DNA from: a virus
Lineage: Duplodnaviria; Caudoviricetes
DNA length: 26,484 nt
Reading direction: 5' to 3' (one strand)
IMG/VR virus record: IMGVR_UViG_3300037309_000133
Span: 1-26,484 of that record
Numbering within the stretch: position 1 is the first letter of the stretch; every line of letters starts with the position of its first letter. Made by a program: the position numbers and the translations under genes. Shown in pieces: positions 355 to 26,450 of this stretch. Under the pieces are notes generated by a model. It was given only the letters and a program-made list of their open reading frames with translations. It was not told where the DNA came from and did no database searches.

Positions 355-1419
355 CCCCACTTTTAATCCTAATTCCACTTTTCTACGTCCACCGTTTGTT
401 CCAAAAGTAGTGGTCACTTTGTCCACCAAATAATCCCCATCACCCCGTTGCGGATAATGCGGGTCATACAGCTTTACCACATTGCCGACCGCGATAAACG
501 GTTTTAAAAACGTGGTAAAACCACCTTTAAAACTCGTTGCTTTGAACTTGCGAAGTTCCTCCAAAGCCAATTTTTCCAAGTCGGCAAACGTCCGCACATT
601 ATAAAAATGAACCGTCCGCACCTCACCGCCACCCTCTGCCGAAAAATCCCCATTAGAAAGTCCCCCATTGGGGGATTTAGGGGGCTTGCGGCGGCTGTCT
701 TTACGGTCAGGTTTTGCGCCGTCACCGACTTCCGTTTCTAAGCGTGAATTGTCGGGCAGTATCGCAATCGCTTTAACCCGCATTTGCACGTCCGCAGAAT
801 CTTGGCGTTCGAGGTCATTATCAATAGTGTTTACCCCAATTTCGTATTTAACCACCGTCGCGTCGGGTGTGTCGTAGCTCAAGCCAACGAACAGTTTTTT
901 AAAAGAACTAAAATAAATCGTCAAACCAAAGTCGTCTTTCAGCTTTTGCAAAGCCATTGCGCCGTTCACATTCCGTAGATAAAAGCCGTGAAACGTAATC
1001 GAAGGCAAATACTTCGTTTCAAGCGTGATGCCTGTCCCCCTCAGTATTTCCTCCAAAACCGATTTGAGCGTGACCTTTTCCCACGATTTATTAAATCGCT
1101 TACGACGGATTAAAAACGTCGCGTCTTCGCACTCAATACTGAGGGGGGTGTTCGGTAAGATTCGGCGTACATAGCCCCGAAATTCCTCCCGCAATTGCCC
1201 GTTGTAGCCCAAGTTTATGACCACCAAATCCCCCACATTAAATTCATTCGCCGTTGGCACTTCCGAAATATACTGCCCTTTGCGCCGCAAAATCGCGGTC
1301 GTTGGCAGTTTGATAGTGGCGGTGTCTTCCAACACTTTTGCGGATTTGACAATCTCCACCTCATTCACGGCGGTCATTTTTTTGTCGCCTATCGTTATGT
1401 CGGAACTTAAAACAAACAT
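352..1419 (-). CDS. Phage late control D / Mu gpP-like tail-baseplate hub protein
   Basis: 355 aa downstream of tape measure; motifs INLGYNG..EEFRGYV, IECED, C-terminal YLVDKVTTTFG..GGRRKVELG. Confidence 0.8.
   Translation of the reverse strand: MFVLSSDITIGDKKMTAVNEVEIVKSAKVLEDTATIKLPTTAILRRKGQYISEVPTANEFNVGDLVVINLGYNGQLREEFRGYVRRILPNTPLSIECEDATFLIRRKRFNKSWEKVTLKSVLEEILRGTGITLETKYLPSITFHGFYLRNVNGAMALQKLKDDFGLTIYFSSFKKLFVGLSYDTPDATVVKYEIGVNTIDNDLERQDSADVQMRVKAIAILPDNSRLETEVGDGAKPDRKDSRRKPPKSPNGGLSNGDFSAEGGGEVRTVHFYNVRTFADLEKLALEELRKFKATSFKGGFTTFLKPFIAVGNVVKLYDPHYPQRGDGDYLVDKVTTTFGTNGGRRKVELGLKVG
662..689. repeat. Short REP-like G/C-run element, copy 1 (CCCCCATTGGGGGATTTAGGGGGCTTGC)
   Basis: 26/28 identical to 15728-15755; lies inside the gpD-like CDS. 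Confidence 0.75.
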
Positions 1420-1448
1420 CGTCGTATAAAGTCAAAAAACTAAATCTT

Positions 1449-1751
1449 ATGAAATTTTCTCTACCAGACAATTCCGAAAATTGGGAAAAACTGATGTCTT
1501 ACATCTTTCACCAATTGTTTTTAGCCCGTGCAGAGGCGCAATTTTCTTATACCGCTTTACAAACTTTAACGGAGGCAATTCAAACCACCGACCCTACCCA
1601 AGAGGATATTTTGAAAATGCTCAAAGCACTTGACAAAACCAAGAATGAAGCCGTCGCCACCATGTACAATCTCCACGTTGATGCTTTTCAAGACCATTTC
1701 GCCGACTTCGACGTGGATTTGTCAGATTGGCTGAAGCAAGAGCTTGACTAA
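1449..1751 (+). CDS. Hypothetical helical protein, antisense to tail operon (moron-like)
   Basis: 100 aa ATG ORF with AT-rich leader; weak similarity to 14091-14381. Confidence 0.7.
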   Translation: MKFSLPDNSENWEKLMSYIFHQLFLARAEAQFSYTALQTLTEAIQTTDPTQEDILKMLKALDKTKNEAVATMYNLHVDAFQDHFADFDVDLSDWLKQELD

Positions 1752-1848
1752 GCTTTTGGCTCAACAAATCAGAGATTATCTGATGCGCCTGTTTTTCGGC
1801 TTCTGAATAGTCTGTAAATCCAGCTATGGTGATTGTGATACGTTTCAT
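1621..1848 (-). CDS. Small hypothetical protein coupled to the DUF6046-like gene
   Basis: ATGA start/stop overlap at 1845-1848; 3' part overlaps the antisense 1449-1751 gene. Confidence 0.4.
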   Translation of the reverse strand: MKRITITIAGFTDYSEAEKQAHQIISDLLSQKLSQALASANLTNPRRSRRNGLEKHQRGDCTWWRRLHSWFCQVL

Positions 1849-2450
1849 AATTCAAGGATAAATTCATAATCAGATACCAATTCAAGCTGATAGGCTTGGG
1901 CGTGTTGAATCCCTATCATTTCGGGCAATTCAAAATTTTTAATCACCACCCGTTGAATATTGAGCAGTTGCGTCAACCCACACACGATTTCGACGCTTTC
2001 ATTCCGCAAATACAATTTGTGTAACTTGTCTATCCAATCTTCGGGATAGATTTCAGTATCGGTGTCCGTTATGGCAATGCCGCGTAGCGTGATGCGCCAA
2101 TCGTCAATGCTAATCAATTCCTTCACCGTGCCGTGTCGCGTACTCGACACAAGTGGCGTTTCGACAATCGTTTTGCTGCTGCTGAGGCTAATCGTCGGCT
2201 CATTGGGCAGCAAAACCCCACCTAATGCAACGGGCATAAACAACGACTCACCCAAGTACGACCGCGCTTGCAACTGCTGCCGCACATTGATAAGGTTCGG
2301 ATTTTGCCCCCCCTCAGTATCGCCCAAGCCAAAGGCGTTGTAAGTCCGTTCCGTTACTTTGCCCACGCTGGCTTGTTCGCCGTCGTAGTCTTTGCCGCGT
2401 TTAAAACCGAATGCCTTTTCAAATAACTGATTGATGGAAAAATTTGTCAT
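1845..2450 (-). CDS. DUF6046-like phage tail protein (tube initiator-type position)
   Basis: 201 aa directly after tape measure; IVETPL..GTVKELISIDDWRITLRG and C-terminal QAYQLELVSD motifs. Confidence 0.75.
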   Translation of the reverse strand: MTNFSINQLFEKAFGFKRGKDYDGEQASVGKVTERTYNAFGLGDTEGGQNPNLINVRQQLQARSYLGESLFMPVALGGVLLPNEPTISLSSSKTIVETPLVSSTRHGTVKELISIDDWRITLRGIAITDTDTEIYPEDWIDKLHKLYLRNESVEIVCGLTQLLNIQRVVIKNFELPEMIGIQHAQAYQLELVSDYEFILEL

Positions 2451-2451
2451 G

Positions 2452-2510
2452 CGTGTTACGTATGGCGTACCGCGTATGGCGTAGGTCGTTTATCGCAATA
2501 CGCAATACAA
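2452..2510. repeat. Degenerate short repeats (CGTATGG, CGCAATA) in intergenic gap
   Basis: CGTATGGCGTA twice and CGCAATA twice. Confidence 0.5.
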
Positions 2511-2511
2511 T

Positions 2512-4269
2512 TTATTGAATTTGATTTGCCATATTGACTACTTGCGTCAATTCGCGCAGTAAGATTTCACGAATTTGCTCTGCCCCTTCTTTTACGTTGG
2601 TCACTTGCATCGTCAGCGTATCAATCCCAATCTTACCCACTTGTATCGTGATAGTTTTGGAGCCGCCGCCCGTGATGCCCGTTGCCGTCTTTTTGGCAGC
2701 ATCGTTTTTATCCGTCGAACCGCCACCACTTGCGCTTGCGCCGAAGCTCACACCGCCGAGCGCACCTTGTCGGTCGTCCCGTTCTGAATAATATTTGTCT
2801 TGCAAATCGCCATAAGCCCCACTATTCCACCCTTTGTTATAGGCTTCACCAATCGTTTTCCCCGCCGAGTAGTAGTCCGTTGCCATGTTTTTCAAGGCAG
2901 TCGCACCGTCAGCGATGCCTTGCCGAATCAAAGAAAAATCTTGTGTAAATACACCCCACAGTATTTTGCCAAATGCCATTAGCGGCGCAATAGCGAAATC
3001 GTATAGGTATTTACCAAACACTTTCAGCACTTCCCACATACCAATTATGAAGCCTCGAAAACTCTCAAACTTGCCCCAAGCCCATACTACCGCCGCCCCG
3101 ACCGCAATAATCGCGGCAGGAATCCAAAAGATAGGACTCTTTAAAAACGTTAGATTTAAGCGTACCAAAGCCGCATTGAAGCTAAGGGTCGCTTCGGTCG
3201 CCAATATTTTCATGGCAGCGTAAAACCCATAAGCCCCGCCGCCGAAATACAGTTGCAATTGTCGAATGCCCAGCAATTGATTGCCGATGAAAGTCACCGC
3301 ATTCCACGCAATGCCAATCGCTTTGAGGGCATAAAAACCGCCATAAGCAAACAAAGCCGCCCCGCCAACTTTAAAAATCAAATCAATATGCTGCCCCAAC
3401 CAATCCACCGCAGGGATTAAATACCCGTTCAAAAACGCGGTCACGGTCGGCATTATCTTCTCGCCAAACGTCAATTGCAACTGCAATAAACTGTTATCGA
3501 AGCGGTTAAAATTGGCGGTTGCCGAGTCTGTGGATGCCAAAGCGGCTTGTCCGAAGGTTTTGTGCATTTCGGCAGCGAATTTGGGTAAAAAATCCGTTGC
3601 TAAGACTTCGCCGCGTTCCAACATCTTGCCCAAAGCCTGTTGGGTCACGCCCATCGAACGAGCAGCAATCCCAAATGCGCCGGGTAAACGTTCGCCCAAT
3701 TGCCCCCGCAATTCCTCCGCGCTGACCGTGCCTTTTGATGCCATTTGCGACAATGCCATAAAAATACCTTTCGACTCATCAGCACTCAAACCCATCACGG
3801 TTGTCCCTTCGCTGACGGATTTGAAAATGTCCCGGGTTTGCGCCGCCGTGATGCCCGTTCCCATGACCCCGCCCGACAATTTGGCAAAGCCTTCGGTCGC
3901 AGCTTTTTGATTCAGAGCCAACGTGTCAATCGTCGAATTGAGAAAGGATAGATTTTCCGCACCCTTCCCCGCGCTCGAAAAATTGATACTCCGCTCAAAC
4001 CCTTCAAACTTCGCCGTCGCTTGCAAACTACCCATCGTAGTGGCGACGATGCCCAAAGTCCCAATCAATTGCGCCGCGCTCGACCCCATTGAGTTAAACG
4101 CGGACACGCCCGTTGTCCCTGCCGTGCGCGTGCGCCGCCCCAGCGTTTCGACTTTAGCGTTTACTTTATCCAAAGTCGTCTCAAAGCGTTCGGTGGCAGC
4201 AGATAGCTTCGCTACCGCGCTGTCGCCAATCGCTTGGAGTTTGATGAGATATGTAAAATCTTTATTCAA
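2512..4269 (-). CDS. Tape measure protein
   Basis: 585 aa Ala/Gly-rich; ALSQMASKGTVSAEELRGQLGERLPGAF tape-measure motif; hydrophobic C-terminal half; TTG start. Confidence 0.92.
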   Translation of the reverse strand: MNKDFTYLIKLQAIGDSAVAKLSAATERFETTLDKVNAKVETLGRRTRTAGTTGVSAFNSMGSSAAQLIGTLGIVATTMGSLQATAKFEGFERSINFSSAGKGAENLSFLNSTIDTLALNQKAATEGFAKLSGGVMGTGITAAQTRDIFKSVSEGTTVMGLSADESKGIFMALSQMASKGTVSAEELRGQLGERLPGAFGIAARSMGVTQQALGKMLERGEVLATDFLPKFAAEMHKTFGQAALASTDSATANFNRFDNSLLQLQLTFGEKIMPTVTAFLNGYLIPAVDWLGQHIDLIFKVGGAALFAYGGFYALKAIGIAWNAVTFIGNQLLGIRQLQLYFGGGAYGFYAAMKILATEATLSFNAALVRLNLTFLKSPIFWIPAAIIAVGAAVVWAWGKFESFRGFIIGMWEVLKVFGKYLYDFAIAPLMAFGKILWGVFTQDFSLIRQGIADGATALKNMATDYYSAGKTIGEAYNKGWNSGAYGDLQDKYYSERDDRQGALGGVSFGASASGGGSTDKNDAAKKTATGITGGGSKTITIQVGKIGIDTLTMQVTNVKEGAEQIREILLRELTQVVNMANQIQ

Positions 4270-4288
4270 AACGACGTGATTTTTTTTA

Positions 4289-4322
4289 AGTCTTAGGAAG
4301 CCTTTGGAGGCTTCCTAAGACT
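4289..4322. repeat. Palindromic REP-like hairpin, copy 1
   Basis: AGTCTTAGGAAGCCT-TTGG-AGGCTTCCTAAGACT; 4291-4320 is the exact reverse complement of 23407-23436. Confidence 0.85.
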
Positions 4323-4328
4323 GAGTGA

Positions 4329-4505
4329 CTATTTGGCGTTGGCTTCCGATTGCCGTATGTGTTCCAATTGTTTTAGGGTCACACACCACGCCTCATCGTC
4401 CAAACTGTCAATATACTGAGGGGTCAAACCCAAATAATACATCAATAAGGTATCGGAATAACTTATCCAATTGTCGTCGGGCGACCCGTCCGCGTCTTCT
4501 AAGTT
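4329..4505 (-). CDS. -1 frameshift extension of tail assembly chaperone (gpGT-type)
   Basis: After TTA AAA AAA the -1 frame reads NLEDADGSPDDNWISYSDTLLMYYLGLTPQYIDSLDDEAWCVTLKQLEHIRQSEANAK*, ending just upstream of tape measure. Confidence 0.8.
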   Translation of the reverse strand, partial: NLEDADGSPDDNWISYSDTLLMYYLGLTPQYIDSLDDEAWCVTLKQLEHIRQSEANAK

Positions 4506-4762
4506 TTTTTTAACTCGCCCTCTTTTTTACCGTAGATGGTATCAGAATTTTCTGCCACAAACAACACAAAACCCGTATCTTCTTTCAAAGCCGTTTTTTC
4601 AGTTTGAGTCGCATCTGTGAGGCAATTGTCAATCAAAACGTCCACGCTTTTAAGCGGGTCTTTTTTCGATAAGGTGATGCCCATTGACAAAATTTTTCGC
4701 GTCGGTGGCGTGAAAACGTAATCTTTGCCGTCGTAGGTAAGCGTGATATTTTGCTTTTTCAT
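4499..4762 (-). CDS. Tail assembly chaperone (gpG-type)
   Basis: 87 aa between tube and tape measure, ends ELKKT* over an A8 slippery run. Confidence 0.8.
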   Translation of the reverse strand: MKKQNITLTYDGKDYVFTPPTRKILSMGITLSKKDPLKSVDVLIDNCLTDATQTEKTALKEDTGFVLFVAENSDTIYGKKEGELKKT

Positions 4763-4823
4763 TGTCCGTAAACTGTTTTAAAACCGTTTTTAAAAGTATT
4801 TTACTGAGGGGGTTTTTTGAGCC

Positions 4824-4858
4824 AATTATCGGCGTGACGCGCAGTCACGCCGACAATT
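4824..4858. repeat. Intergenic hairpin downstream of tail tube gene
   Basis: TCGGCGTGAC (4829-4838) / GTCACGCCGA (4844-4853), flanked by AATT. Confidence 0.7.
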
Positions 4859-4864
4859 CTCCTA

Positions 4865-5287
4865 CTACACGTTGGTTTGAATATTCAACGCCATGAATTT
4901 CAAGGCGACCTCCATTTCTTTATCGCCCTGAGCGAATCCCTTTTCATATTCCGAAATACGAGCGGATTTAATCACATCGGTCACAAGCAGCGTTCCGTCG
5001 TTGTACTGTACCACGATGTCAAAACTCACATCCGTCAAATCTTTGGTAGGCGATATGGCTTTTATGGCAGCTTCCATGCCCGTCAGCTCGCTTTGCGTCA
5101 CCGTCAATTCGCCTTCGTAGCTCTTATTGCCCGCCTGAATACTGAGGGGCTTGTTGCCACGCCCGTAGAGGGCGTCTTGGTCGGTTTTGATGGTGTATTT
5201 GACCCCTCGAAAGCCCTCCACCGTCCGACCCAACAGCCGAACCGACACGTCGGCAAACTCATAGTTTTTACTATTGAATGTAGGCAT
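4865..5287 (-). CDS. Tail tube protein
   Basis: 140 aa after sheath; FNSKNYEFADV, LYGRGNKPLSIQAGN..YEGELTV, QGDKEMEVALKF motifs. Confidence 0.85.
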   Translation of the reverse strand: MPTFNSKNYEFADVSVRLLGRTVEGFRGVKYTIKTDQDALYGRGNKPLSIQAGNKSYEGELTVTQSELTGMEAAIKAISPTKDLTDVSFDIVVQYNDGTLLVTDVIKSARISEYEKGFAQGDKEMEVALKFMALNIQTNV

Positions 5288-5301
5288 TTTGTAAAGAAAT
5301 T

Positions 5302-5364
5302 ATAGGTGATAGGTGAAAAGTGATAGGTGATAATTACTTATCACTTTTCACCTATCACTTTTCA
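5302..5364. repeat. Heptamer-built imperfect palindrome (TAGGTGA/AAAGTGA units and their inverse)
   Basis: Left arm TAGGTGA TAGGTGA AAAGTGA TAGGTGA; right arm TCACTTT TCACCTA TCACTTT. Confidence 0.85.
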
Positions 5365-5365
5365 A

Positions 5366-6547
5366 TTAAGAATTAGCGGGATTGCGGAAACCCAACTCCA
5401 CGACGATATGCGTTTTGTAGCCAACGGGCGTGATGTTTAGTTGAATTTTGTATTGTCCCGTTGCCAAAATATTCTGGAAAGGGTCAATGAGGCACTGCAC
5501 CGCCGAAATTTCGGCATTGGCTAACATAGTGAGGCTAATTGCCCGTTCCATGTCCGCTTGGTCGGCTTTGGCTTCTACGGGGTCAATTCTGCCTTGCGCG
5601 TCCACTTGAATTTCGTCTTCGACTTTCTCCAAAAATGTATCGTAGGCAATACGAATGGCTTTGTCAATGACCCGCCGATTGACCACCGAACTAAAATCTT
5701 CCGTTTCGACGGTCGCCGTATTGTCGTTGGTGAAAAAATAACCCGCTTTGCGGTTGTGCTTCCGAAGCCCAATAAAACCATTGTCGTTGACAATCGTAGC
5801 GAGGTTGTTATTGACTTGCAAACTGCCGTAGTAAGCATAATCTACGTTTTTAACCGCCCCATCTGCTACTGCGCCGATTTTGCGTTGTACCGAGTTTTTG
5901 CTCAATCGCCCCAACACCAAGCCTACTGCACCCATGCGAGAGGGCATATAATCGCCCAAAAACACCGCCACGCGGTTGTCCGAGCGTTGGGTCAAGTCGG
6001 GCAAAGTCAATTGACTAAATGTCGTGTTGACAAATCGTCCCTGTAAAATAAACAAAATAGGGGCAAATTCTGCCGCCCAAGCCGTTGCCACCGTTTGCGC
6101 CGCCCCAATTGCCGTATAAACGTCCGCGTCCAAGACCGTCGAACCTTGCGCGACGGGTGTGTAGCTGCCCAATGGATTGCGAATGACCCCAATGATTTTG
6201 ACCCGAAAATTCGATTCATTCATCAAAGTTTCCGTGTGGCTCGTGACCATTTGCGCCATCGTAAGCGACTGACTTAGCAATTTGACCCACAATTCTTTGC
6301 CGTTACCACCTTCATCGTAGAAGTCTCTGAGGTGCGACAACACATTCAAATTGTTTATCGTGTCGTATTCTTCGCCAAAATCAGCCAATACGTCGGCATA
6401 GCTGAAATATTGGCGATGGTCGCCTACGGCAATAGCATTACCGTCCACACCTTGTACCAAAAGCCCCATCACACCGTCGTCGGTGGCGGGTGCAATGCCC
6501 AAATTGTTGTTCGTTACAATTACGGTTATTTTTGATAATTCTGCCAT
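5366..6547 (-). CDS. Tail sheath protein (DUF2586-like)
   Basis: 393 aa; GLVLGRL..VQRKIGAV.DG, NRRVIDKAIRIAY, C-terminal ITPVGY..IVVELGF. Confidence 0.87.
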   Translation of the reverse strand: MAELSKITVIVTNNNLGIAPATDDGVMGLLVQGVDGNAIAVGDHRQYFSYADVLADFGEEYDTINNLNVLSHLRDFYDEGGNGKELWVKLLSQSLTMAQMVTSHTETLMNESNFRVKIIGVIRNPLGSYTPVAQGSTVLDADVYTAIGAAQTVATAWAAEFAPILFILQGRFVNTTFSQLTLPDLTQRSDNRVAVFLGDYMPSRMGAVGLVLGRLSKNSVQRKIGAVADGAVKNVDYAYYGSLQVNNNLATIVNDNGFIGLRKHNRKAGYFFTNDNTATVETEDFSSVVNRRVIDKAIRIAYDTFLEKVEDEIQVDAQGRIDPVEAKADQADMERAISLTMLANAEISAVQCLIDPFQNILATGQYKIQLNITPVGYKTHIVVELGFRNPANS

Positions 6548-6548
6548 G

Positions 6549-6633
6549 ATAGTTAGTTAGTTGGTTAGTTAGTTGGGTTGGTTAGTTGGTTAGTGTGTAA
6601 CTAACTAACCAACTAACCCAACTATCTAACTAC
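6549..6633. repeat. Tetramer-built imperfect palindrome (TTAG/TTGG versus CTAA/CCAA)
   Basis: Run of GTTA/GTTG units followed by their reverse complement. Confidence 0.85.
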
Positions 6634-7062
6634 TTAGAAATAGCCGCCCGAAGCTTTTTTGTTTTTAAACAGCGAATCCACAATCCATTTCAACACATTG
6701 AAAACGTTGTTATCCGCTTGCGTTGGCGTCAGATTAACAACGGCTTGTGCCACAAACAACAGCACCGTAATCCAACCAATCCAATTAACGACCGCCCAAT
6801 TCCAAAACGACTGCCCCGCCTTCGGTTGCGTAAACACAACATTCAGGGCAATGATAGAGTCGGGAGCAGTCTGTCGAATCGTCACGGGAACCGCCGACGT
6901 TTGACCGTCTTTGAGCGTTCCAATAAACACATTGGTCGCCGTTGGGCTGTCCAATTGGGCTTGTACTGAGGGGGGGATGTCTTGGGCTTGGATAGTTGTG
7001 CAACTCTGCACTATCAGCAAGGCATCAATGCCCACAATAAAATAAAACAGAAACTTTTTCAT
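6634..7062 (-). CDS. Membrane/exported protein, possibly lysis-related
   Basis: N-terminal hydrophobic signal-like segment, C-terminal TM followed by LTPTQADN. Confidence 0.55.
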   Translation of the reverse strand: MKKFLFYFIVGIDALLIVQSCTTIQAQDIPPSVQAQLDSPTATNVFIGTLKDGQTSAVPVTIRQTAPDSIIALNVVFTQPKAGQSFWNWAVVNWIGWITVLLFVAQAVVNLTPTQADNNVFNVLKWIVDSLFKNKKASGGYF

Positions 7063-7132
7063 GTAGAAAGTAGATTTGAACGTGATTAGAACGGGTATAA
7101 AACCCTGTCAATAAGGCGGCGCACGAAGGCGA

Positions 7133-7366
7133 CTAAGCCTTTTTTTCGGCTTTTGGCACTTTTAATTCTGTCGGTATCTCGGTAGCGTAAACGTCCGATT
7201 TTTTGACTATCAGCATATTGTCGGTAATACCCGCCGCAAAATTGGTCGCGTGTACCTTTTGGCTACCCATGAATACTTGGGTGTCGTGGTGCTTGTTTTT
7301 GACCACATACAGTTCCGATTCGTCGGAGTGTGCCTCAAAATAGGCTTTCAATTCGTCTTTTCCCAT
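7133..7366 (-). CDS. Hypothetical phage protein
   Basis: 77 aa co-oriented in late operon. Confidence 0.65.
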   Translation of the reverse strand: MGKDELKAYFEAHSDESELYVVKNKHHDTQVFMGSQKVHATNFAAGITDNMLIVKKSDVYATEIPTELKVPKAEKKA

Positions 7367-7371
7367 CGTTG

Positions 7372-7623
7372 TTATTTTACGAAATGTTGAATTAAAAAAG
7401 AGGCAATAGACCCCAAAGCAGTGGCAATGGCAGATGCCAGTGTCGTGTAAGTTTTGATACGGGTATTGACTTCGACTTTGAACCGTTCAAAATCAAGCTC
7501 CAATTGCCGAAGCCGTGCTTCGTTCTCGTCGGCTTTCCTTTCGAGCCGTTGCACCGTCTCGTAGGTCAATACACTGATGACTTGTGGACTCATGCCTTTG
7601 TATTCTTCTGTTACTTCTGCCAC
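7372..7623 (-). CDS. Coiled-coil protein with C-terminal TM (holin/XhlA-like)
   Basis: 83 aa; RLERK..EARLRQLE coil followed by a hydrophobic tail; GTG start. Confidence 0.6.
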   Translation of the reverse strand: MAEVTEEYKGMSPQVISVLTYETVQRLERKADENEARLRQLELDFERFKVEVNTRIKTYTTLASAIATALGSIASFLIQHFVK

Positions 7624-7669
7624 TGCTTTGAGATGCTAATTGCTGTTTAAAAAATTGATATTCAGGAAA

Positions 7670-8581: not shown

Positions 8582-8645
8582 TTGAGTATGTTACTTTTTG
8601 TTGTGATTGCAAAACTTTTTGTTTCAAAATAGGGAAAGGGGTAGT

Positions 8646-18124: not shown

Positions 18125-18161
18125 TTTTCTTTTTTTTATGTCAAAATACTGAGGGGTATAA

Positions 18162-18650
18162 TTACTGCAACTCTTTTTTGAAAATTAGATACACTCTCTT
18201 CAAAACCATAAGAAAAACTAAGGAAAACTCTGCAAGCAAAAAAAATGACACTATATTTATGGCTCTCTTTATATTTATTGAAAGACCATCAATAAAACCG
18301 AAAAGCATAATAAAAATTGCAATAAAAGAGACAACTATTGCAAATGAAATATTAGCGGTTACTTCTTTTACAATTATTTGTTTGATTTCAGCCGATTCTT
18401 GCTTTCTTGCAATGTCCAATAATATTACAAGAGCATTGAATAATAAACCTACAAAAATAGAAAGGCTACCTACTATTGTTTCGATTGAATCTTTGTTAAT
18501 GTCTAATCCACAACAAAACAATATTAAGGAAATAACAAGAGGTAATACAACAAATGAAAAATAGTCATCGAAGCCGGGTCGGTTCGTGTTTACATCAACC
18601 AATGTTTTGAAATGGTCTTTGAATATTTCTTTAAAACTAATTTTACTCAT
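18162..18650 (-). CDS. Membrane protein with about 4 TM helices, unknown function
   Basis: 162 aa, four hydrophobic segments; start overlaps the upstream gene. Confidence 0.85.
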   Translation of the reverse strand: MSKISFKEIFKDHFKTLVDVNTNRPGFDDYFSFVVLPLVISLILFCCGLDINKDSIETIVGSLSIFVGLLFNALVILLDIARKQESAEIKQIIVKEVTANISFAIVVSFIAIFIMLFGFIDGLSINIKRAINIVSFFLLAEFSLVFLMVLKRVYLIFKKELQ

Positions 18651-19656
18651 TGTTGCGCTTTGGTAATATTTCCTCTTGTAATAATTTATCGAAAAATGCC
18701 AAGCAATATTCTTTTAATGAATCTTTAGTAGGCAGATTGGTTTCTTTATCTCTTTCTATACTACTTTCATCAACATAATAATAAGGCGATAGTGTATAGT
18801 TTTGTGATTTTTTTGCAGTTGCTTTTTTGCCATTAAATTCATATTCTATCAAAACATCATGTGTTCCATCCATTCCTATATCTTCAAGAATAGGGGTCGA
18901 AAAGAATCTATGGTCTGCAAAAGCATTTTCAAAATCCAAAGTTAATATATCTTTGAATTGTTTGGAGTAATTTTTTAGACCACTAATCTTTACTTCAATA
19001 ACAACTTCTGAATGAATAAAATTCAAACCAAGAATAGAATTTGCTTTGTCAGAATTGAGCTTGTGTCTTTTTAGGGTAATTTTATTAATGTCACCTTTAT
19101 CTTTCATTTGTTCGATAGTGTCCTTCGGAATAAATTTGCCCATTTGAAACAATCTATCTTCGATGTTATCAGTAAAAAATTTTTTGATTAAAGAGCAAAA
19201 TGATTCAGAAATTGAATTGGTTGAAAAACCTTGTATTAAGATAACACCCATTTTGCTTTCCATTGGTGCCCAAATCATAAAGAAATAATCAATAGAATCG
19301 ACATGGTCAGCAGTTACTCTAAAAATTTCATCATCTGGTTTGTTTTTATCTACAATAGTTTTAGCAATGCCAGATTTACCGCCTTTTACAAAACCATAAA
19401 TCAATTCTTTTTCAGACGCAAAACTGATTGCACTTTTTGGTGGATATATGACTGTTTCTGATTCCCCTAACCCTGCAAATTTACCATCGAAACTCTGCAT
19501 GAATTTCTCAAAAAATGTACGAAAGTTAAGTATTTGTCTTTGCTGACCGTCATAAAATGAGAGTTCTTTTAAATTGTAATATTCAGGACGGTTGTTTTTA
19601 GTTTGACGACTTCTAACTTGAAAAGTGAAGCAATCTAATCTTACATCATGTGGCAT
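18643..19656 (-). CDS. Soluble protein of unknown function (accessory, candidate anti-phage component)
   Basis: 337 aa AT-rich ORF, overlapping the TM gene by 8 nt. Confidence 0.85.
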   Translation of the reverse strand: MPHDVRLDCFTFQVRSRQTKNNRPEYYNLKELSFYDGQQRQILNFRTFFEKFMQSFDGKFAGLGESETVIYPPKSAISFASEKELIYGFVKGGKSGIAKTIVDKNKPDDEIFRVTADHVDSIDYFFMIWAPMESKMGVILIQGFSTNSISESFCSLIKKFFTDNIEDRLFQMGKFIPKDTIEQMKDKGDINKITLKRHKLNSDKANSILGLNFIHSEVVIEVKISGLKNYSKQFKDILTLDFENAFADHRFFSTPILEDIGMDGTHDVLIEYEFNGKKATAKKSQNYTLSPYYYVDESSIERDKETNLPTKDSLKEYCLAFFDKLLQEEILPKRNNE

Positions 19657-19743
19657 GTAGAATTATTTTTAATGTTTTATCTTTGAGTTTGTTTAATTAC
19701 TATGATTTGTGTGTTCTTTTAATTACCACGAACAGCTCATAAG

Positions 19744-20133
19744 TTATTGAAAATCAATGTCTTTTAAAACTGATTTTTCATTGATTTTTAGCAATTTCTG
19801 TTCGTCAAGTTTTTGTACATATCTTTTATGTCCTCTGATTGCTGCGAACTGCTGATTTCGATAGGTCAGCGTAATCATGTTAGCGTTTTGTGAGGCAAAT
19901 ACACCCTGCAAAGTGCCTTTAAGCGCAGCAACGCTATGGAGCATAGATAGACCAATCAGCGTATTGTTGTCCAGTTCCGTATCATCGTCCGTTTTGACTG
20001 ATAGGGTTCCTGATGCAAGGTTTTCGCAAGTTTCTTCCAATATCGCTTCGTGCAAGGGGTGTAAACCTACATTGTCAAGATGACTGAGAAAAGCAGTTTT
20101 TAAGTCAGCAGCATTTAGATTGTTTGTTATCAT
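19744..20133 (-). CDS. Hypothetical protein, antisense moron-like
   Basis: 129 aa; TATGTTTG box at 20171-20164 upstream; weak similarity to 13646-13954. Confidence 0.7.
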   Translation of the reverse strand: MITNNLNAADLKTAFLSHLDNVGLHPLHEAILEETCENLASGTLSVKTDDDTELDNNTLIGLSMLHSVAALKGTLQGVFASQNANMITLTYRNQQFAAIRGHKRYVQKLDEQKLLKINEKSVLKDIDFQ

Positions 20134-20183
20134 GTCAAAAGGATTTAAAGTTATTTATTGCCACAAACATAATTAAAAAAAAG

Positions 20184-20729
20184 ATGCTTTACGAAAAAAA
20201 CATCTACGTCCACATTCTCACCAAACTATCCGCTCTGCGCGACCAACAAAACCGCGAAGTGGTGCGGTGGGTAGATTTTGACATGGGGCAACTCGAAATG
20301 GAAACACCGCCCGTTTCGTTTCCCTGCGTTTTGGTGAGTTTTCCCAATGCCGACGACTTTACGACCAATCGTGACCAGTCGCAACAAGGCAATCAGACCG
20401 TTACTTTGCGGGTGGCGTTCAAACTATTTGAACGGACGCACTCCAAAGCCACCCCTCAGTATCGCGGCGAAGCCTTGCAGATATTTGAGGTAAAAGAGGC
20501 AATCCACAACGCGCTGCAAGCGACGAGCGGCAACTGCTTTGGCAAACTCAACCGCGTCGGCTCTCGATTAGAACCGCGCATAGATTTGCGGGTGTTTGAA
20601 CTGACCTACGACTGCGCCGTGCAGCAAGCCGCCCCGCGTCCCGATTACCGACCCGTTGGCGACTACACCAACGTACCGATTACGTTGGATTTGGACGTGG
20701 ATTTATTGCGTCCAGATGGTCAACCATAA
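20184..20729 (+). CDS. Mu gp37-like tail terminator/neck protein (start ATG 20184)
   Basis: RWVDFDMGQLE...PPVSFPCVLV and IHNALQ motifs; follows the gpG-like gene in the plus operon. Confidence 0.7.
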   Translation: MLYEKNIYVHILTKLSALRDQQNREVVRWVDFDMGQLEMETPPVSFPCVLVSFPNADDFTTNRDQSQQGNQTVTLRVAFKLFERTHSKATPQYRGEALQIFEVKEAIHNALQATSGNCFGKLNRVGSRLEPRIDLRVFELTYDCAVQQAAPRPDYRPVGDYTNVPITLDLDVDLLRPDGQP

Positions 20730-20889
20730 TTAGGCTGAGAGCGTGAATCGCCGCCGCTTTGTCGGGTGTGATACTGAGGGGGGACTCCGTTGCGGCAGCA
20801 ATGAGGGTGGCAATGTGTTGGACTGTTCTGATACTGGTGGGAATGGTAGCTGTTTTTTCGGTAGGTTGTAAAAGCGTGTCGTTTGTCAT
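20680..20889 (-). CDS. Small hypothetical protein
   Basis: 69 aa; TAAGTTTG box at 20923-20916 upstream; weak similarity to 12476-12703. Confidence 0.5.
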   Translation of the reverse strand: MTNDTLLQPTEKTATIPTSIRTVQHIATLIAAATESPLSITPDKAAAIHALSLIMVDHLDAINPRPNPT

Positions 20890-20967
20890 GTATGCGCTGG
20901 ATTAAATTGTTGCCACAAACTTAACGCTTTTTGTTTTATATTTAAAATTTTGCTTTGTTTTTGAAAC

Positions 20968-21009
20968 AAAAAATTGCCGCAACTCGAAGGAGATGCGGCA
21001 AGTTTGTTT
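20968..21009. terminator. Probable bidirectional terminator
   Basis: TTGCCGCA (20974-20981) / TGCGGCAA (20994-21001), A-run on left, T-rich on right. Confidence 0.65.
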
Positions 21010-21065
21010 ATGAGATGTTAATACAAATTCAACATATTTAAATTTTTGTACTTTTGGTTTTGTAA

Positions 21066-21191
21066 CGAAATAACGGCTGTTCGTATCATGGCAAACCGCT
21101 TTTAGTGGGCAGACGCGGTGGGTGTTATTACATCAATGGAAATGGCAACAAGACTTATGTGGATAGGTCTTATTGTCAAAATTGTTGGTAA
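21066..21191 (+). pseudogene. Remnant ORF with Cys-rich GRRGGCYYINGNGNKTYVDRSYC motif
   Basis: Frame reads RNNGCSYHGKPLLVGRRGGCYYINGNGNKTYVDRSYCQNCW*, preceded by in-frame TAA at 21063-21065. Confidence 0.5.
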
Positions 21192-21238
21192 AATACTGAG
21201 GGGTAGCAAGTCAGACTTGCTACCCCTCAGTATTTTAC
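21188..21238. terminator. Perfect 51-bp palindrome with two TACTGAGGGG copies, joining two convergent stops
   Basis: GTAAAATACTGAGGGGTAGCAAGTC-A-GACTTGCTACCCCTCAGTATTTTAC. Confidence 0.75.
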
Positions 21239-21747
21239 AGTATTGTTGGAATAAAATCCGAACTTTCGGCTGCTTCTAATCGCTGTTTATATTTTTCTAC
21301 TATTTCAACGAACTTTAAGTATTTGGCATCGGTAGAAATATCAAACAACGACGTGTAATTTTTAGCGTATTCCTTCAATTGGTTTTCAGCTATTGTCACT
21401 TTTCTACGCCGTGCTGCAATGATGTCCTTTCGGCGTTTTTTTAAAGCGTCTTCTGATTCTTTTATCTCGTAATCGAAGTAAATAAGTTCCGCGTAAAAAC
21501 GTGGAAACTTTACTTGCAATAAACTTGCACGATAGCGAAAATACCATTTCCATTTGTTAAAAATCTCGAATCTAAACCCTTTGTTATAGTAAGCAAGCTC
21601 TTTTATTGCGCTTGTAGTTTCGGCGTGATGAAGTATGATTTTGACTCCAAACGCCTTATTGACAAGACTTCCAAGCCTCATTGTCTTGTCTATTTCCGCT
21701 TCGATGTCTTCAAACCAATTCATGTTAAAATAGTGATTGTTGCCCAT
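21235..21747 (-). CDS. Hypothetical phage protein
   Basis: 170 aa (start may be the internal MNWF ATG at 21723); last gene of early operon. Confidence 0.75.
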   Translation of the reverse strand: MGNNHYFNMNWFEDIEAEIDKTMRLGSLVNKAFGVKIILHHAETTSAIKELAYYNKGFRFEIFNKWKWYFRYRASLLQVKFPRFYAELIYFDYEIKESEDALKKRRKDIIAARRRKVTIAENQLKEYAKNYTSLFDISTDAKYLKFVEIVEKYKQRLEAAESSDFIPTIL

Positions 21748-22339
21748 TTTTAATTTTCCTATCCCAAATCACAAACTTCTGATTGCCACCAAACCGAGAG
21801 CGCGGGAAGGCAACAAACTCCCGCACGGCTACTTTGATGTCCGCCATAAACTCAATGGCTTTGGCGTGTTCGCCTTTGGGTTTGCCGCACGACTCCCAAC
21901 AGATGATGATAAACGCCTTGCGCGGGTGGGCTTTGACCATGAGTTTGTACTGCTGATGGGTGAGTCCGAGGTAGTCGCGGCTGTCAATAAAGATGATTTG
22001 AGGGGCGTTTTTGCCACCCAAGCGTTCCATCATCATGTCAAAATCTTCTTTGTCGCCAAAGAAGATTTTGCCCTTTACCTCGTGCATCTTATTGCGTTTG
22101 AGGGCATCTTGGAGGGTTTTGGAGATGCCCTGCTCAAAGCTGTTGTAATACACCTTTTTGAAGCGGCTGAGATACTTGGCGAACTGAATGCAAAACTCGG
22201 TTTTGCCGTTCCCGGGCTTGCCATAGACAATCATACGGAAATTGCGTTCGGGTTCGCCGAAGGTGTCGAGCCACGCGCCGTCAAAAGGCAATGTGTCGAA
22301 CGTGCGTTCTAAAAAATCTGTGATACTGATACCGCGCAT
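21725..22339 (-). CDS. P-loop ATPase (RecA/RadA-like) of Mu-like phages
   Basis: GKPGNGKT Walker A, IIFIDS Walker B, SRFGG. Confidence 0.85.
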   Translation of the reverse strand: MRGISITDFLERTFDTLPFDGAWLDTFGEPERNFRMIVYGKPGNGKTEFCIQFAKYLSRFKKVYYNSFEQGISKTLQDALKRNKMHEVKGKIFFGDKEDFDMMMERLGGKNAPQIIFIDSRDYLGLTHQQYKLMVKAHPRKAFIIICWESCGKPKGEHAKAIEFMADIKVAVREFVAFPRSRFGGNQKFVIWDRKIKNGQQSLF

Positions 22340-22401
22340 TTTTGATAGATGTTTAGAGGCGATTGTGTATGAAAATAGCCGTTTTTACTGAGGAGGGTGA
22401 C

Positions 22402-22429
22402 GTGTGCCACACTTGGAAGTGTGGCACAC
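22402..22429. repeat. Intergenic perfect palindrome
   Basis: GTGTGCCACACTT-GG-AAGTGTGGCACAC directly after the stop at 22431. Confidence 0.75.
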
Positions 22430-22430
22430 A

Positions 22431-22862
22431 TTATTTAGGGGCTTCGTACTTTTTTGGCTTAACAATGCGGTAGTAAGTATCTACCCCCGCAATGATATAC
22501 GAGTCGCTTTTGTACACTTCAATTTTGCAGGTGAACGATGGCAGCGACCTTTCGAGCGAAAGCCTGAAAGAATAGGCTTCACCAATCAGTTTGTTAAGCG
22601 CAGAATTTGATAATTCAAGACCACGGGAGTATTTTTTAGAAATCGCTTTCAACCGAAAACCACTATCAGATTTGTACATATAAAATATGCCTTCTTCTGA
22701 CTCCAAAAACATCAATTTATCGCCCTGTTTTAGTCCCGTTTGCCTGATAAATCCTGCCGAAAAAGTCAATTTTCCCGCCTGTCCAAACTTGACTGACCAA
22801 TCATCGCTCATCATTCTTGACGGCAAATCCTCAGGCGCAATGGTGCGTTTTACTTTCATCAT
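22431..22862 (-). CDS. Hypothetical protein, possible AbrB-like N-terminal region
   Basis: GKLTFSAGFIRQTGLKQGDKLMF pattern. Confidence 0.6.
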   Translation of the reverse strand: MMKVKRTIAPEDLPSRMMSDDWSVKFGQAGKLTFSAGFIRQTGLKQGDKLMFLESEEGIFYMYKSDSGFRLKAISKKYSRGLELSNSALNKLIGEAYSFRLSLERSLPSFTCKIEVYKSDSYIIAGVDTYYRIVKPKKYEAPK

Positions 22863-22883
22863 TTTTTACTGATTTTTAAATTG

Positions 22884-23105
22884 TTAAACTACTTTTTGCC
22901 ACCAAGCAACCACTTTTTTATAAGCGTGTTTTGCCTCTGTAGGCGTTTCAAATGCGACGGTGTAAACCTGCGTAGCGGTATAGACGGAATAATACGTGTC
23001 GCTTTCGTAGTGGGCAATGGCTTCGACTTTTCGGAGGTCGAATGCGACTTTGCCCGATAAAAAAATGGGTGTCTGTTCTTCCATTTTAGAAATGGGTTTA
23101 AACAT
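22884..23105 (-). CDS. Hypothetical protein
   Basis: 73 aa co-oriented early gene. Confidence 0.6.
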   Translation of the reverse strand: MFKPISKMEEQTPIFLSGKVAFDLRKVEAIAHYESDTYYSVYTATQVYTVAFETPTEAKHAYKKVVAWWQKVV

Positions 23106-23143
23106 TAATCAAAAAGCGTTTTTTGTTGCTGTTTACGTTGTTG

Positions 23144-23383
23144 TTAGCGGTTTTTTTCGGCAGTTTCGAGGGCTTCCAAACGGTCTATTTCTTGGCGTAG
23201 GAATAGGGGCTTGTAATTGAGATAGCGGTAAAACTGACGCTCTGATTTGATGTAAAATTGCTGTTGTATAAAGGTTTTAAACACATAGGTATTGGTCATT
23301 CCGTCTTTCAACTCTCGTTGAAAAACTGCCTGTACATCGCGTACTTTTTTATAAAAAATCAATTTATCGTGCTTTCGCGCCAT
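23144..23383 (-). CDS. Mor/C-like HTH transcription regulator
   Basis: 79 aa after GemA-like gene; FYIKSERQFYRYLN HTH-like end. Confidence 0.6.
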   Translation of the reverse strand: MARKHDKLIFYKKVRDVQAVFQRELKDGMTNTYVFKTFIQQQFYIKSERQFYRYLNYKPLFLRQEIDRLEALETAEKNR

Positions 23384-23404
23384 GTATGTCGTGATGCTAG
23401 TCCC

Positions 23405-23438
23405 AATCTTAGGAAGCCTCCAAAGGCTTCCTAAGATT
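23405..23438. repeat. Palindromic REP-like hairpin, copy 2
   Basis: AATCTTAGGAAGCCT-CCAA-AGGCTTCCTAAGATT. Confidence 0.85.
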
Positions 23439-23442
23439 AAGG

Positions 23443-23874
23443 TCAGTTCAAAACCGCAATAGTGTTCTCTTTATCGGCTTTACCCTTCTGTTTTTTATTG
23501 ATGATGCAGAGACGTGACACGGTGGTTTTCAGTTCCGCTTCAGTCATTTCGACCATCATTTTACCCGCGATTTTGGGTGATAACAACAGCCCGTTGAGGC
23601 GTTCCCAAGCGGATTTATTGTGCATTTTGACCCCCAAATATTGCTCACATTCTGCAATCAGGCATGAGCGCAAGCGGCGAATTTTTTTCGGCACGTCGGC
23701 TGCTTTGTACTGGTTGAGGTTTTGGAGACGGTCAATGAGCGCATCAATTTGTTCGTCGGTAAGGTCGAGCGTGGACGTTACGCCGTACTGTTCTAACAGC
23801 ACCCCTTTTTGGTCGCGGAGGTGGTTGAGGTGCAGTAGGCTGTTGAAATACTGGTTTTTTTGTTTACGTTCCAT
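23443..23874 (-). CDS. GemA-like (DUF1018-like) protein
   Basis: GVTSTLDLTDEQIDALI, RRLRS, WERLN..L.PKIAGK...MTEAEL motifs. Confidence 0.65.
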   Translation of the reverse strand: MERKQKNQYFNSLLHLNHLRDQKGVLLEQYGVTSTLDLTDEQIDALIDRLQNLNQYKAADVPKKIRRLRSCLIAECEQYLGVKMHNKSAWERLNGLLLSPKIAGKMMVEMTEAELKTTVSRLCIINKKQKGKADKENTIAVLN

Positions 23875-24029
23875 TTTTTTGAAAAAAGGCTACTCACAGA
23901 TTTTGCTTTCGACTAACTTTTTGTAAAATTTCAAATATGATGAAAAATATACTCCGTGAAGTAATCGCGTCGCGTCCGCTTCAAGATGCGATTGTCAAAC
24001 ATTATTGATTGCGCCACGTGTACGGTTTG

Positions 24030-24323
24030 TCATAAGAAATTCGTTTTACGATGAGCTAAAATAATGCGCATTTCTTCGGTTTCGTGGATGATTTGAGACA
24101 TCCAGTCGGCGGGTGGCTCAGGTTCGATTTTGAAAACATTGGTGATGTCGTCGTCCATCAATCTGTTTTCAAATTCGATGTTGTTGAGCAGTTTGCTCAA
24201 TACCCAAATGCGTTGTGTATCTGTCCAGTTGCCGAGCATTTCAAATTGGCAAATAGTACCTTCGGGTGTGTAGCCGACTTTTAGTCGGGTCTGGGTTTTG
24301 TTACCTGTCAAAAGATAGGTCAT
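24030..24323 (-). CDS. Hypothetical protein (start likely ATG 24323)
   Basis: MTYLLTG... with AT-rich leader. Confidence 0.55.
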   Translation of the reverse strand: MTYLLTGNKTQTRLKVGYTPEGTICQFEMLGNWTDTQRIWVLSKLLNNIEFENRLMDDDITNVFKIEPEPPADWMSQIIHETEEMRIILAHRKTNFL

Positions 24324-24755
24324 TTTAAAAATGTTTTTTTGCCTTTTTCCGCTTGCGCTTCGTTGAAAATCGTGATTGCACAAACGACAAACACCGTGAA
24401 AAAAATAATGAGAATGAGCATTTTTGATTGATTTTATCTTAGAAAGATAGATACCTTTTTTTTCTTCGATTTCGAGGATGGCTTGGAAGTGCGCAAAGGC
24501 GACATCTGTGCGTCCTTCGGGACTCAGAACATCTTTTTGCCACCCAATTGCTTAGAAATGGCGTTGGCGCAAACACAAAACAAATAGCCAATTTCGAGGC
24601 TAAAAATGCCCAAAACGAGTATGTAAATAAGTACCACGATTGTTGTTAGATTAGACCGTAAACAATAAAAACAGAGCCGCCATTATCAGCGTAAGACAGT
24701 CAAACAGCGACTCTGAAAATTCATCAAAACCAAATGAAAACAAACTTCCTGTACA

Positions 24756-25235
24756 TTATTTCTTGGCGACCAATTTGAAGACATTGGGCTTGCGGTTGAG
24801 TTGAATACCCAATTTTGTGAGAATGCCAACCAAAGTGTAGTCAGATTGCAAACCCGCATAAATCGCTTTGTTATTCAGTTCGACGGTTTTGTATGTTTCG
24901 TCCACCAAGTTGATAAATTCCGCCAATTTTGCTTTCAACATTTCTCCTTTTGCGCCTGTCCATTCCAAGCCGCCAATGGTCTCCGTGATTTGGTACTGGT
25001 CGGTGGTATTGGTATGAGGATTTTCCGCCATCCATGCTATGAGCGTATCTTTCTGCGCGTCGAGCGCGTCTTTGTCGGCTTTGAGTTTTGTGTCTTTTTC
25101 AGCGATGTCTGCCGCCAATTTTCGCATTTCGTCGGCTTTACTGAGGGGTGCGACACTTTCAGATTTTGCTGCTTTTTTGCCCTTTTTAGGGGGCGCTTCA
25201 AACGCCTGTGTAAAGGCGACTTCTGTTTTTGCCAT
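24756..25235 (-). CDS. Gam-like host-nuclease inhibitor
   Basis: Coiled coil followed by KTVELNNKAI...LTKLGIQL....FKL, resembling the Mu Gam C-terminus; position after MuB-like gene. Confidence 0.5.
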   Translation of the reverse strand: MAKTEVAFTQAFEAPPKKGKKAAKSESVAPLSKADEMRKLAADIAEKDTKLKADKDALDAQKDTLIAWMAENPHTNTTDQYQITETIGGLEWTGAKGEMLKAKLAEFINLVDETYKTVELNNKAIYAGLQSDYTLVGILTKLGIQLNRKPNVFKLVAKK

Positions 25236-25323
25236 GTGTATGCTACTATTTTAAAAAAATTTATAATCAATACTTTAACACCAATTGCCCAAATTTTGGT
25301 CTTTTAGTTTTGTGAGTACCATT

Positions 25324-25554
25324 TTAGGCTTCGTATTTTTTATGAAAAAAATCTTTGACATATTTTTTCTGATTGAGCGAGAGTAAAACTGCGTCTAAAA
25401 TGTCTTTAAATCGTTGGTCTCGTTCCGCCAGTACCACAAAAGCGGTTGCTAAATACTGTCTGTCCATTTCGCCTTTGAATTGAAAGGCGATACTACCTGT
25501 TTGGGGGTCGTGGTGGGCTTCAACCGTGAAAAAACTTAATTCTTGACTGTTCAT
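25324..25554 (-). CDS. Hypothetical protein
   Basis: 76 aa, ATGA overlap with the ATPase gene. Confidence 0.65.
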   Translation of the reverse strand: MNSQELSFFTVEAHHDPQTGSIAFQFKGEMDRQYLATAFVVLAERDQRFKDILDAVLLSLNQKKYVKDFFHKKYEA

Positions 25555-26450
25555 GCGGCGATGCTGATTTTGTAGCCTTCGATTTTCGCCCTAAGTTGGC
25601 GCAAATCGTTGACGGTTTTTTCATAAGCGTTTCCAACTAATCGAGTATTGACCTCACAAGACTCAAAAATCCGCTTGCATACTGAGGGGTCGGTGATGCC
25701 ATTGGCTTTGCAAATGGCTCGGACACTTTGTAGGTCTTCACCGACCAAGTGAACGAAGCTGCGCCCGAAGCGGCTGAATAGCTCGTCAAATCCTTTTTGA
25801 GCGTACTTCACGCCCCGCTTTATTTCCTTTTCTAAGTTGTCCGTTCCGCAAATCACCACCCCCAATTCGCCTTCACACTCGTTGTAGAGTGGAATCAACA
25901 GGCGCAAAGCGGCGGGTTTGAGTTTGTCGGCTTCGTCAATTATGAGTAGCGGTCGTTCCGCACCTTTGCGCTTGAAAAAGCTGGAAATGCTCTCAATAAA
26001 GTCGTCCACGTTGTTGGTAAGCGGCAAACCCAATGCCTTCATCAGAGCCTCCATAAACCGCCCGCGTGACCACTCCCGACATTCGAGCCGAAACACCGCC
26101 GTTGGGTTTTCACGGGCGAATAACTTGGTGGTGGTGGTTTTGCCCGAACCAGCGCGTTCGCTAATGGCTTTGAATTGGGCGTTCTGACGGGCATCGTCTA
26201 AGACCGTCCGCACCATCATATAGTTGCGGGTTTCGACCGTTGCCCAGCCCCCCTCAGTAAATGAGTAGCCAATTGCCGCCGCGATTTTGTAGTACATATC
26301 GTCGCCTTTGGCAGCGTAGGTCCCGTTTAGGATTTGGGTGATAACCGCGTCCGAAACGCCGCATTTACGGGCGGCTGCGCTTTGGCTGCCGAGTGCCGTG
26401 ATGTTTTGTCTGAGGGCTTGAATTAAGCCTATTTTTTGAATGTCGTGCAT
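25551..26450 (-). CDS. MuB-like transposition ATPase (HTH + AAA)
   Basis: SQSAAARKCGVSDAVITQILNGTY HTH; RAGSGKTT Walker A; LLIIDEAD Walker B; ELFSRFG. Confidence 0.9.
   Translation of the reverse strand: MHDIQKIGLIQALRQNITALGSQSAAARKCGVSDAVITQILNGTYAAKGDDMYYKIAAAIGYSFTEGGWATVETRNYMMVRTVLDDARQNAQFKAISERAGSGKTTTTKLFARENPTAVFRLECREWSRGRFMEALMKALGLPLTNNVDDFIESISSFFKRKGAERPLLIIDEADKLKPAALRLLIPLYNECEGELGVVICGTDNLEKEIKRGVKYAQKGFDELFSRFGRSFVHLVGEDLQSVRAICKANGITDPSVCKRIFESCEVNTRLVGNAYEKTVNDLRQLRAKIEGYKISIAA

Follow-up and report, generated by a model that had tools for sequence, protein, structure and literature searches.

A ten-base word repeated through a Mu-like phage and the chromosomes of one Saprospiraceae genus: a candidate DNA-uptake tag

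The window analysed here is the whole of virus record IMGVR_UViG_3300037309_000133 (Duplodnaviria; Caudoviricetes; 26,484 bases), and at 352..26450 it holds part of a Mu-like transposable phage of the Bacteroidota type, with genes for baseplate, tape measure, sheath, major head, protease, terminase, portal, a MuF-type head protein and the transposition ATPase. Scattered within and between these genes is a non-palindromic 10-mer, TACTGAGGGG, that an initial annotation made from the letters alone had likened to a DNA uptake sequence or a HIP1-type signal. Our recount gives the same 25 exact copies (16 plus, 9 minus, from 1037 to 26259, or 0.96/kb) and just four copies with one mismatch, where 0.01-0.025 exact copies are expected from Markov models of orders 1-5 whose training sequence had the motif masked; an unmasked order-5 model expects 3.4, the motif there training its own model. 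Sixteen of the 25 lie within open reading frames (ORFs) of a 38-gene list and nine are intergenic. The copies, and the three inverted pairs that some of them form, are placed as follows.

1037..1046, minus strand: copy in the baseplate hub gene, sense, read as LRG
1137..1146, plus strand: copy in the baseplate hub gene, antisense, PLS
2310..2319, minus strand: copy in ORF 1845-2450 (PHROG baseplate hub), sense, TEG
4414..4423, plus strand: intergenic copy
4802..4811, plus strand: intergenic copy
5140..5149, plus strand: copy in the tail gene 4865-5287, antisense, PLS
6964..6973, plus strand: copy in ORF 6634-7062, antisense, PSV
9159..9168, plus strand: copy in the head protease gene, antisense, PSV
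9763..9772, plus strand: intergenic copy, between the divergent protease and small-terminase-like genes
11201..11210, minus strand: copy in the terminase large subunit gene, antisense, PLS; homologues have PYS or PLN and no motif
12404..12433, minus strand: inverted pair 12406/12422, predicted terminator made of a 13-pair stem and a U tail
14400..14409, plus strand: copy in the portal gene, sense, LRG
15418..15427, plus strand: copy in the portal gene, sense, TEG; homologues have VEG or VDG and no motif
15625..15658, no strand assigned: inverted pair 15625/15649, in the part of the portal gene for the acidic C-terminus (TEG, PSV), the core doing most of the pairing
16473..16482, minus strand: copy in the MuF-type head gene, antisense, PSV
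18147..18156, plus strand: intergenic copy bordering low-GC cargo genes
20452..20461, minus strand: copy in ORF 20124-20729, antisense, PQY
20772..20781, plus strand: intergenic copy
21188..21238, no strand assigned: inverted pair 21194/21223, a 24-pair stem (z about -11) between convergent ORFs, predicted bidirectional terminator
25139..25148, plus strand: copy in ORF 24756-25235, antisense, PLS
25680..25689, plus strand: copy in the transposition ATPase gene, antisense, PSV
26250..26259, minus strand: copy in the transposition ATPase gene, sense, TEG

As the initial annotation had it, the in-ORF copies use all five stop-free frames of the word, giving the peptides TEG (four copies), LRG (two), PLS (four), PSV (five) and PQY (one), and the frame that holds TGA is never used. 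The three inverted pairs it listed are likewise present, two as long stems at gene ends and one inside the portal gene; the 21194/21223 stem was not among the calls of the terminator scan. To these features we add the surroundings of the core: the base at -1 is A in 15 of 25 copies, that at +1 is G or T in 23, and the A/T flanks of the 25 sites are phased at 10.5 bp near the core, with an amplitude of 0.139 against a null maximum of 0.092.

The word is one of the host lineage and not of the phage. Searched for the inverted pair, 23 of 64 parts of the GTDB contigs gave 122 loci, mostly in metagenome-assembled genomes (MAGs) titled as Saprospiraceae and with many extra single copies close by; one of these genomes, G001, holds 3,480+3,468 copies of TACTGAGGGG in 7.3 Mb and three of the reversed word. 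Across 401 evenly sampled genomes of the family, three have thousands of copies and 398 have 0-18, and a one-mismatch scan of the same 401 added no carrier, the runner-up (G010) reaching 1.6 times its own control. Within one Saprospiraceae genus the word is common: 21 of 33 genomes carry 2,840-6,948 copies (0.46-0.95/kb), the other 12, G430 among them, have 1-39 each, and the reversed word occurs 0-8 times. The count of the k-mer in host and phage that had been proposed as a check comes out on the side of the host. That TACTGAGGGG is a phage-specific site, a mobile repeat or a compositional artefact, as its first being met in a phage might suggest together with a second, different phage record that has 28 copies in 36.8 kb, can be regarded as refuted by the thousands of copies in host chromosomes, rpoB and comEC included, by their lying mostly in ORFs with unrelated flanks, and by the count of zero in 7/7 more distant relatives of the phage, whose terminases are 48-67% identical. 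A phage locus with a 100% identical terminase has three copies, copies are also present at two (four and two copies) of three terminase loci of distant prophages that lie in bearer genomes, and scans of viral sequences for the inverted pair found extra copies at 1/19 loci and 0/2 loci. Judging from the shared word, the genus is likely to be the phage's host; no close prophage relative was found in it, the matches being in 3/33 genomes at 34-38% identity, and the precise host species is therefore missing from them.

Outside the family, a Flavobacterium MAG has 83 copies, of which the 50 listed fall on 10 contigs that are likely to be mis-binned, a fragmented Bacteroidota MAG has 731, and two other non-Saprospiraceae genomes have 2-3. 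Since the genus member G428 has two ComEC genes and 39 copies genome-wide, the ComEC contig from it that bears the motif is likely to be a contaminant. Single contigs marked by TACTGAGGGG in otherwise motif-poor MAGs, namely G431 (L031), G432 and G428:C73, likely flag mis-binning. The literature searched, to which subscription papers and supplements did not belong, held no description of TACTGAGGGG or of such a motif for Saprospiraceae.

In host chromosomes the density of the word is alike within and between ORFs (0.97 vs 1.23/kb in one case, 0.63 vs 0.52/kb in another), the five stop-free frames are all occupied and the TGA frame has no copy. It leaves an imprint on proteins: across 300 ORFs of two bearers, the tripeptides TEG, LRG, PLS, PSV and PQY are enriched 2.4-5-fold and 61-84% of them are motif-coded against 0.3-6% expected, and in motif-free genomes (205 ORFs) only 2 of 87 such tripeptides are. 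Low-GC genes have a lower density (0.33-0.48 vs about 0.7/kb), a difference confounded with composition. There is no preferred strand on the draft contigs on which the polarity tests rest, with 106 plus and 109 minus copies in 18 stretches taken from a 721-kb contig (heterogeneity p=0.64), 81 of each on a 161-kb contig, and an orientation relative to GC skew of 113 vs 102 (p=0.50). Chi and the FtsK-orienting polar sequences (KOPS) are short, non-palindromic and G-rich, as is TACTGAGGGG, and are skewed by replichore. A polar signal of that kind, serving a helicase-nuclease or a translocase, is largely refuted and has become highly improbable because the word is non-polar, which is how the polarity check called for earlier turned out.

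Comparison of orthologues, also called for, indicates that sites are kept across species. At a conserved TEG of rpoB the exact word is present in 12 of the 17 bearer rows that cover it and missing from five, as it is from the motif-free rows, and G411 has 10 of 14 aligned sites in common with other bearers, a comparison between deep lineages. Sites are sharply matched, with 1,071 perfect against 157 one-mismatch copies, and positions 2-6 tolerate change least. The least tolerant positions 3-6 include CTG, and the base that follows is the one altered in the dialect of G430; CTG is reported as the essential core of all DNA uptake sequence (DUS) dialects in PMC3630211, and its sharing is probably a coincidence.

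The dialect just mentioned sets G430 apart from the A-type bearers of TACTGAGGGG. This genome has 2,769 copies of TACTGGGGGG, one letter off TACTGAGGGG, and no other genome has more than 34. In 221 kb sampled from it there are 158 perfect TACTGGGGGG sites, six with one mismatch and none of the A type, and the frame that holds TGA in TACTGAGGGG, being stop-free in TACTGGGGGG, is used at 4 of 63 in-ORF sites. At its loci L365-L384 the dialect sites sit in longer G runs, 63 of the 158 being in ORFs of at least 150 aa. Two of its sites in comEC and one in comEA coincide with A-type sites; the comEC dialect sites resemble slipped, lengthened A-type sites, and the coincidences, in very small numbers, hint at a link between the word and competence genes.

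On an RpoB tree of the genus (29 of 30 loci used) the bearers cluster, with 3 changes against 8.5 when shuffled; a motif-free group of six genomes is placed next to the A-type bearers or inside them, and G430 falls with a second motif-free group. The approximately unbiased (AU) test rejects one clade for all bearers (p=0.001) but does not reject one for the A-type bearers (p=0.11), in an analysis of 16 rows (22 full-length less 6 near-identical bearers; LG+G4, unrooted) whose groups were defined after the first tree had been viewed. Rejection of one bearer clade requires loss in relatives or transfer of a reader. Neither TACTGAGGGG nor TACTGGGGGG is abundant in 11 of the 33 congeners, where the screen for further dialects covered just 2.4-40 kb per genome and may have missed a distant one. 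In that screen TTGCGAGGGG of G084 was rejected as a local repeat (10+0), as were candidate words in G406, G412 and G428, which are clustered or paired repeats. The local repeats of these motif-free congeners, at L154/L166 (G084), L153 (G406), L156 (G412) and L171 (G428), comprise GTTCGGCA-type arrays, AACCTCGCCG arrays and paired TCCTACGGAA.

How does the word compare with known uptake signals? Like the DUS of Neisseriaceae and the uptake signal sequence (USS) of Pasteurellaceae, it is a non-palindromic word in the 9-12-bp range at about 1/kb genome-wide with no strand bias on draft contigs, sits in stop-free coding frames, reshapes peptides, is conserved in place across species, and has a clade-specific dialect, the last in one genome only. 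The likeness in working refers to these signals as described in PMC3630211, PMC2397512 and bioRxiv 10.1101/2025.10.24.684340. DUS and USS are also under-represented in recently acquired DNA; the observations here that bear on this are the lower density in low-GC genes, confounded with composition, and a motif-free stretch of likely cargo in the window, weak evidence by itself. With DUS, which is read by ComP, it shares the non-palindromic 10-mer, the high ratio of perfect to one-mismatch sites, one-letter dialects, one frame closed by TGA, a spacing of about 1.1-1.5 kb and sites in permissive places (PMC3630211, PMC2397512). Unlike DUS, which lacks conserved flanks (PMC1626085), it comes from another phylum and is another word, few of its copies form the terminator pairs that are so many among DUS, and no pilin motif was found in its bearers. 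The Hin and Apl types of USS resemble it in frequency (about 1/kb), in lying on both strands and in genes, in a conserved core with A/T-rich flanks one helical turn apart, and in clade-specific variants and build-up in temperate phages (PMC1626085, PMC7811141, PMC6776037); they differ in the word, in that the phasing of the flanks of TACTGAGGGG runs to about 85 bp in either direction and its close or inverted pairs are rare, and in that type IV pilin and secretin were not found in bearers. The initial annotation was correct that the word is neither signal: it is not the DUS, and it differs from the USS as printed in PMC3630211. The likeness to DUS and USS that it proposed stands for density and frames and extends to conservation and dialects, but it is weak for terminator stems, and no pilin or secretin was found; the word works much as they do and is not a member of their class, going by its letters, its terminator pairing and the pilin and secretin that were not found.

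On balance we favour the reading that TACTGAGGGG is a DNA-uptake tag that marks the lineage's own DNA, was spread by molecular drive and became imprinted on a resident Mu-like phage. A putative pilus-independent reader would bind the core together with its helically phased A/T flanks and would favour tagged DNA for import by way of ComEA, ComEC, ComF and DprA; biased uptake and recombination would then have written the word into permissive places in genes. Molecular drive of this kind would account for gains at permissive sites, for a change of dialect, for losses among relatives and for the imprint on a temperate phage: the G dialect may have followed from altered reader specificity, the motif-free relatives may be losses, and the phage may have acquired the word by residing for long as a prophage in a bearer. 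There are precedents, in that temperate Pasteurellaceae phages accumulate the host USS (PMC6776037) and USS uptake is helped by A/T tracts at helical spacing (PMC7811141, PMC1626085). Within the Bacteroidota, Riemerella prefers its own DNA, and PMC7965970 identifies no motif, a k-mer search there having given only A/T-rich words; the outer-membrane step of DNA entry in Porphyromonas is described as unclear (PMC11532111). Of the competence genes that the initial annotation had suggested seeking, ComEC scores in 32 of 33 genus genomes (and in 10 of 14 controls), comF, comEC and comEA form an operon in G001, G228 and G415, where ComEA is of a four-HhH type, and DprA is found in 5/5 genomes.

Several observations weigh against an uptake tag. 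The predicted inner competence proteins ComEC, ComEA and DprA occur also in motif-free relatives and so do not separate the bearers. No bearer-specific domain was seen in them, ComEA having been aligned in 12 full rows with the C-terminal part from G430. The other part of the competence check gave a negative result: in these incomplete drafts the N-terminal motif of type IV pilins (N_methyl) was found in 0/5 genomes (8/14 controls) and secretin in 0/33 (6/14 controls), so that both the known readers and the channel are missing. A 700-aa HHH protein was rejected as a candidate, since by its type of sequence it looks like Tex and not like ComEA. Transformation of Riemerella requires an outer-membrane protein and a DUF5689/DUF5017 protein (PMC8459023); that gene pair was not recovered here, and the DUF5689 and DUF5017 hits, being nucleases exported by the type IX secretion system (T9SS), were rejected as readers. 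No reader emerged from the candidates checked, namely ComEA, the HHH protein and these hits. One T9SS-exported protein with an OB-fold (DUF5689) and an EEP nuclease (P0001; L280 8415-11345, minus strand) is shared by 20 of the 21 A-type bearers and by 0/12 others, G430 included, with its nuclease part matched in G001 and one other of 151 family genomes; it is a correlate, reflecting few independent events and larger genome size, and no demonstrated reader. The word itself has 0 copies in comF (three genomes) and in dprA (three motif-bearing genomes), and sharing of G430 sites with A-type sites, assessed on n=10-11 sites, falls to 0/7 in genes other than comEC and comEA and to 1/11 against the single best homologue.

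Spacing and flanks count against an uptake tag as well. Gaps below 100 bp number 8 against 49 expected; by contrast, PMC7811141 gives 23% of H. influenzae USS as lying no more than 100 bp from another. Inverted pairs no more than 30 bp apart number 13-74 per genome, or 0.7-3.2% of copies, and are at or below random placement in four of five genomes, many nonetheless having extended stems, so that the parallel drawn earlier with terminator stems is weak in hosts. Across the 1,071 perfect sites, which are drawn from related genomes and so not wholly independent of one another, flank A+T rises and falls every 10.5 bp, between about 42% and 78% upstream, and the oscillation exceeds the null as far as about 85 bp to either side of the core, farther than the length of a USS. 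This phasing is motif-specific (0.19 vs 0.02-0.05 for control words), and its phase is identical across all five frames, which argues for a feature of DNA shape rather than of coding; it is stronger still in G430 (18-92% A+T). The core's neighbours in hosts are A before (414/668) and G or T after (639/668).

Such evenness, scarcity of pairs and long two-sided phasing fit a wrapping protein (PMC1939737, PMC13756078), and one may picture an anchor of chromosome architecture in which, every ~1 kb, about 80-170 bp of phased A/T-tract DNA would be wrapped or bent by a cytoplasmic protein bound to the core. Gaps have a coefficient of variation of 0.57-0.76, more even than random, with long ones depleted like the short (30 vs 46 expected above 3.2 kb), and genome-wide AA/TT periodicity is cleaner in motif-bearing than in motif-free genomes. 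We nevertheless consider an anchor unlikely: with 11/33 congeners having neither form of the word and no single clade of bearers, it would call for loss or transfer that is hard to imagine for a scaffold the cell cannot do without, selection acting site by site would need to have altered proteins in thousands of places and a phage besides, and no such protein was identified. The same even spacing, with the absence of any pilus found and the sharp match of sites (1,071 to 157, and 158 to 6 in G430), would suit a mark acting after uptake in the manner of HIP1 of cyanobacteria, where intracellular methylation or binding would bias recombination, repair or protection of own DNA and so ratchet the word up. 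HIP1 recurs many times over in DNA both coding and non-coding, is conserved, quasi-periodic and variable by lineage, and raises transformation in a methylation-dependent way (PMC13756078), but it is an 8-bp palindrome containing methyltransferase sites. Because TACTGAGGGG is not a palindrome it is not HIP1 itself, and the annotation's comparison holds for iteration, placement inside and outside genes, conservation, even spacing and lineage variants. A contiguous non-palindromic 10-mer with phased flanks is also unlike typical methyltransferase targets, and a mark of this sort seems to us a rather poor prospect, less probable than an anchor.

Some other features of the window deserve mention. 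The 2.3-kb stretch at 18157..20451 (no strand assigned; GC 0.34) is motif-free and holds three ORFs without a PHROG match that are likely to be recent cargo; about two copies of TACTGAGGGG would be expected and none is present, which is weak evidence alone. These low-GC ORFs (18162-20133, minus strand) face opposite to the flanking phage genes and might be, for example, a defence module. The MuF-type head gene (15742-17061, plus strand) has a C-terminal extension with R...S-S...E-x-E, by eye a candidate ADP-ribosyltransferase, and a small opposite-strand ORF is next to it. At the contig end, positions 10-350 are tandem 7-base units (TCATACT/TCATACC), open in two plus-strand frames as ILHTSYF-type repeats; a 20-base pattern of this array has one match in G001 and none in four other genomes.

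Sequence-specific DNA uptake has so far been described for two proteobacterial families, both of them users of type IV pili. To return to the favoured uptake tag, it is tempting to go further and propose, more tentatively and at somewhat less than even chances, that there is a third, pilus-independent form of it, in which an outer-membrane or periplasmic reader of the 10-bp core would wrap roughly 80-170 bp of phased DNA, rewriting proteomes and phages and switching dialect or being lost within one genus. That genus, in which 21 members bear the word, 11 are motif-free and one has a dialect, is a natural experiment for naming the reader; if the reader proved to be intracellular, it would instead belong to a new chromosome-marking system. 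The word itself is usable as a marker of the host for phage contigs and as a detector of mis-binned ones.

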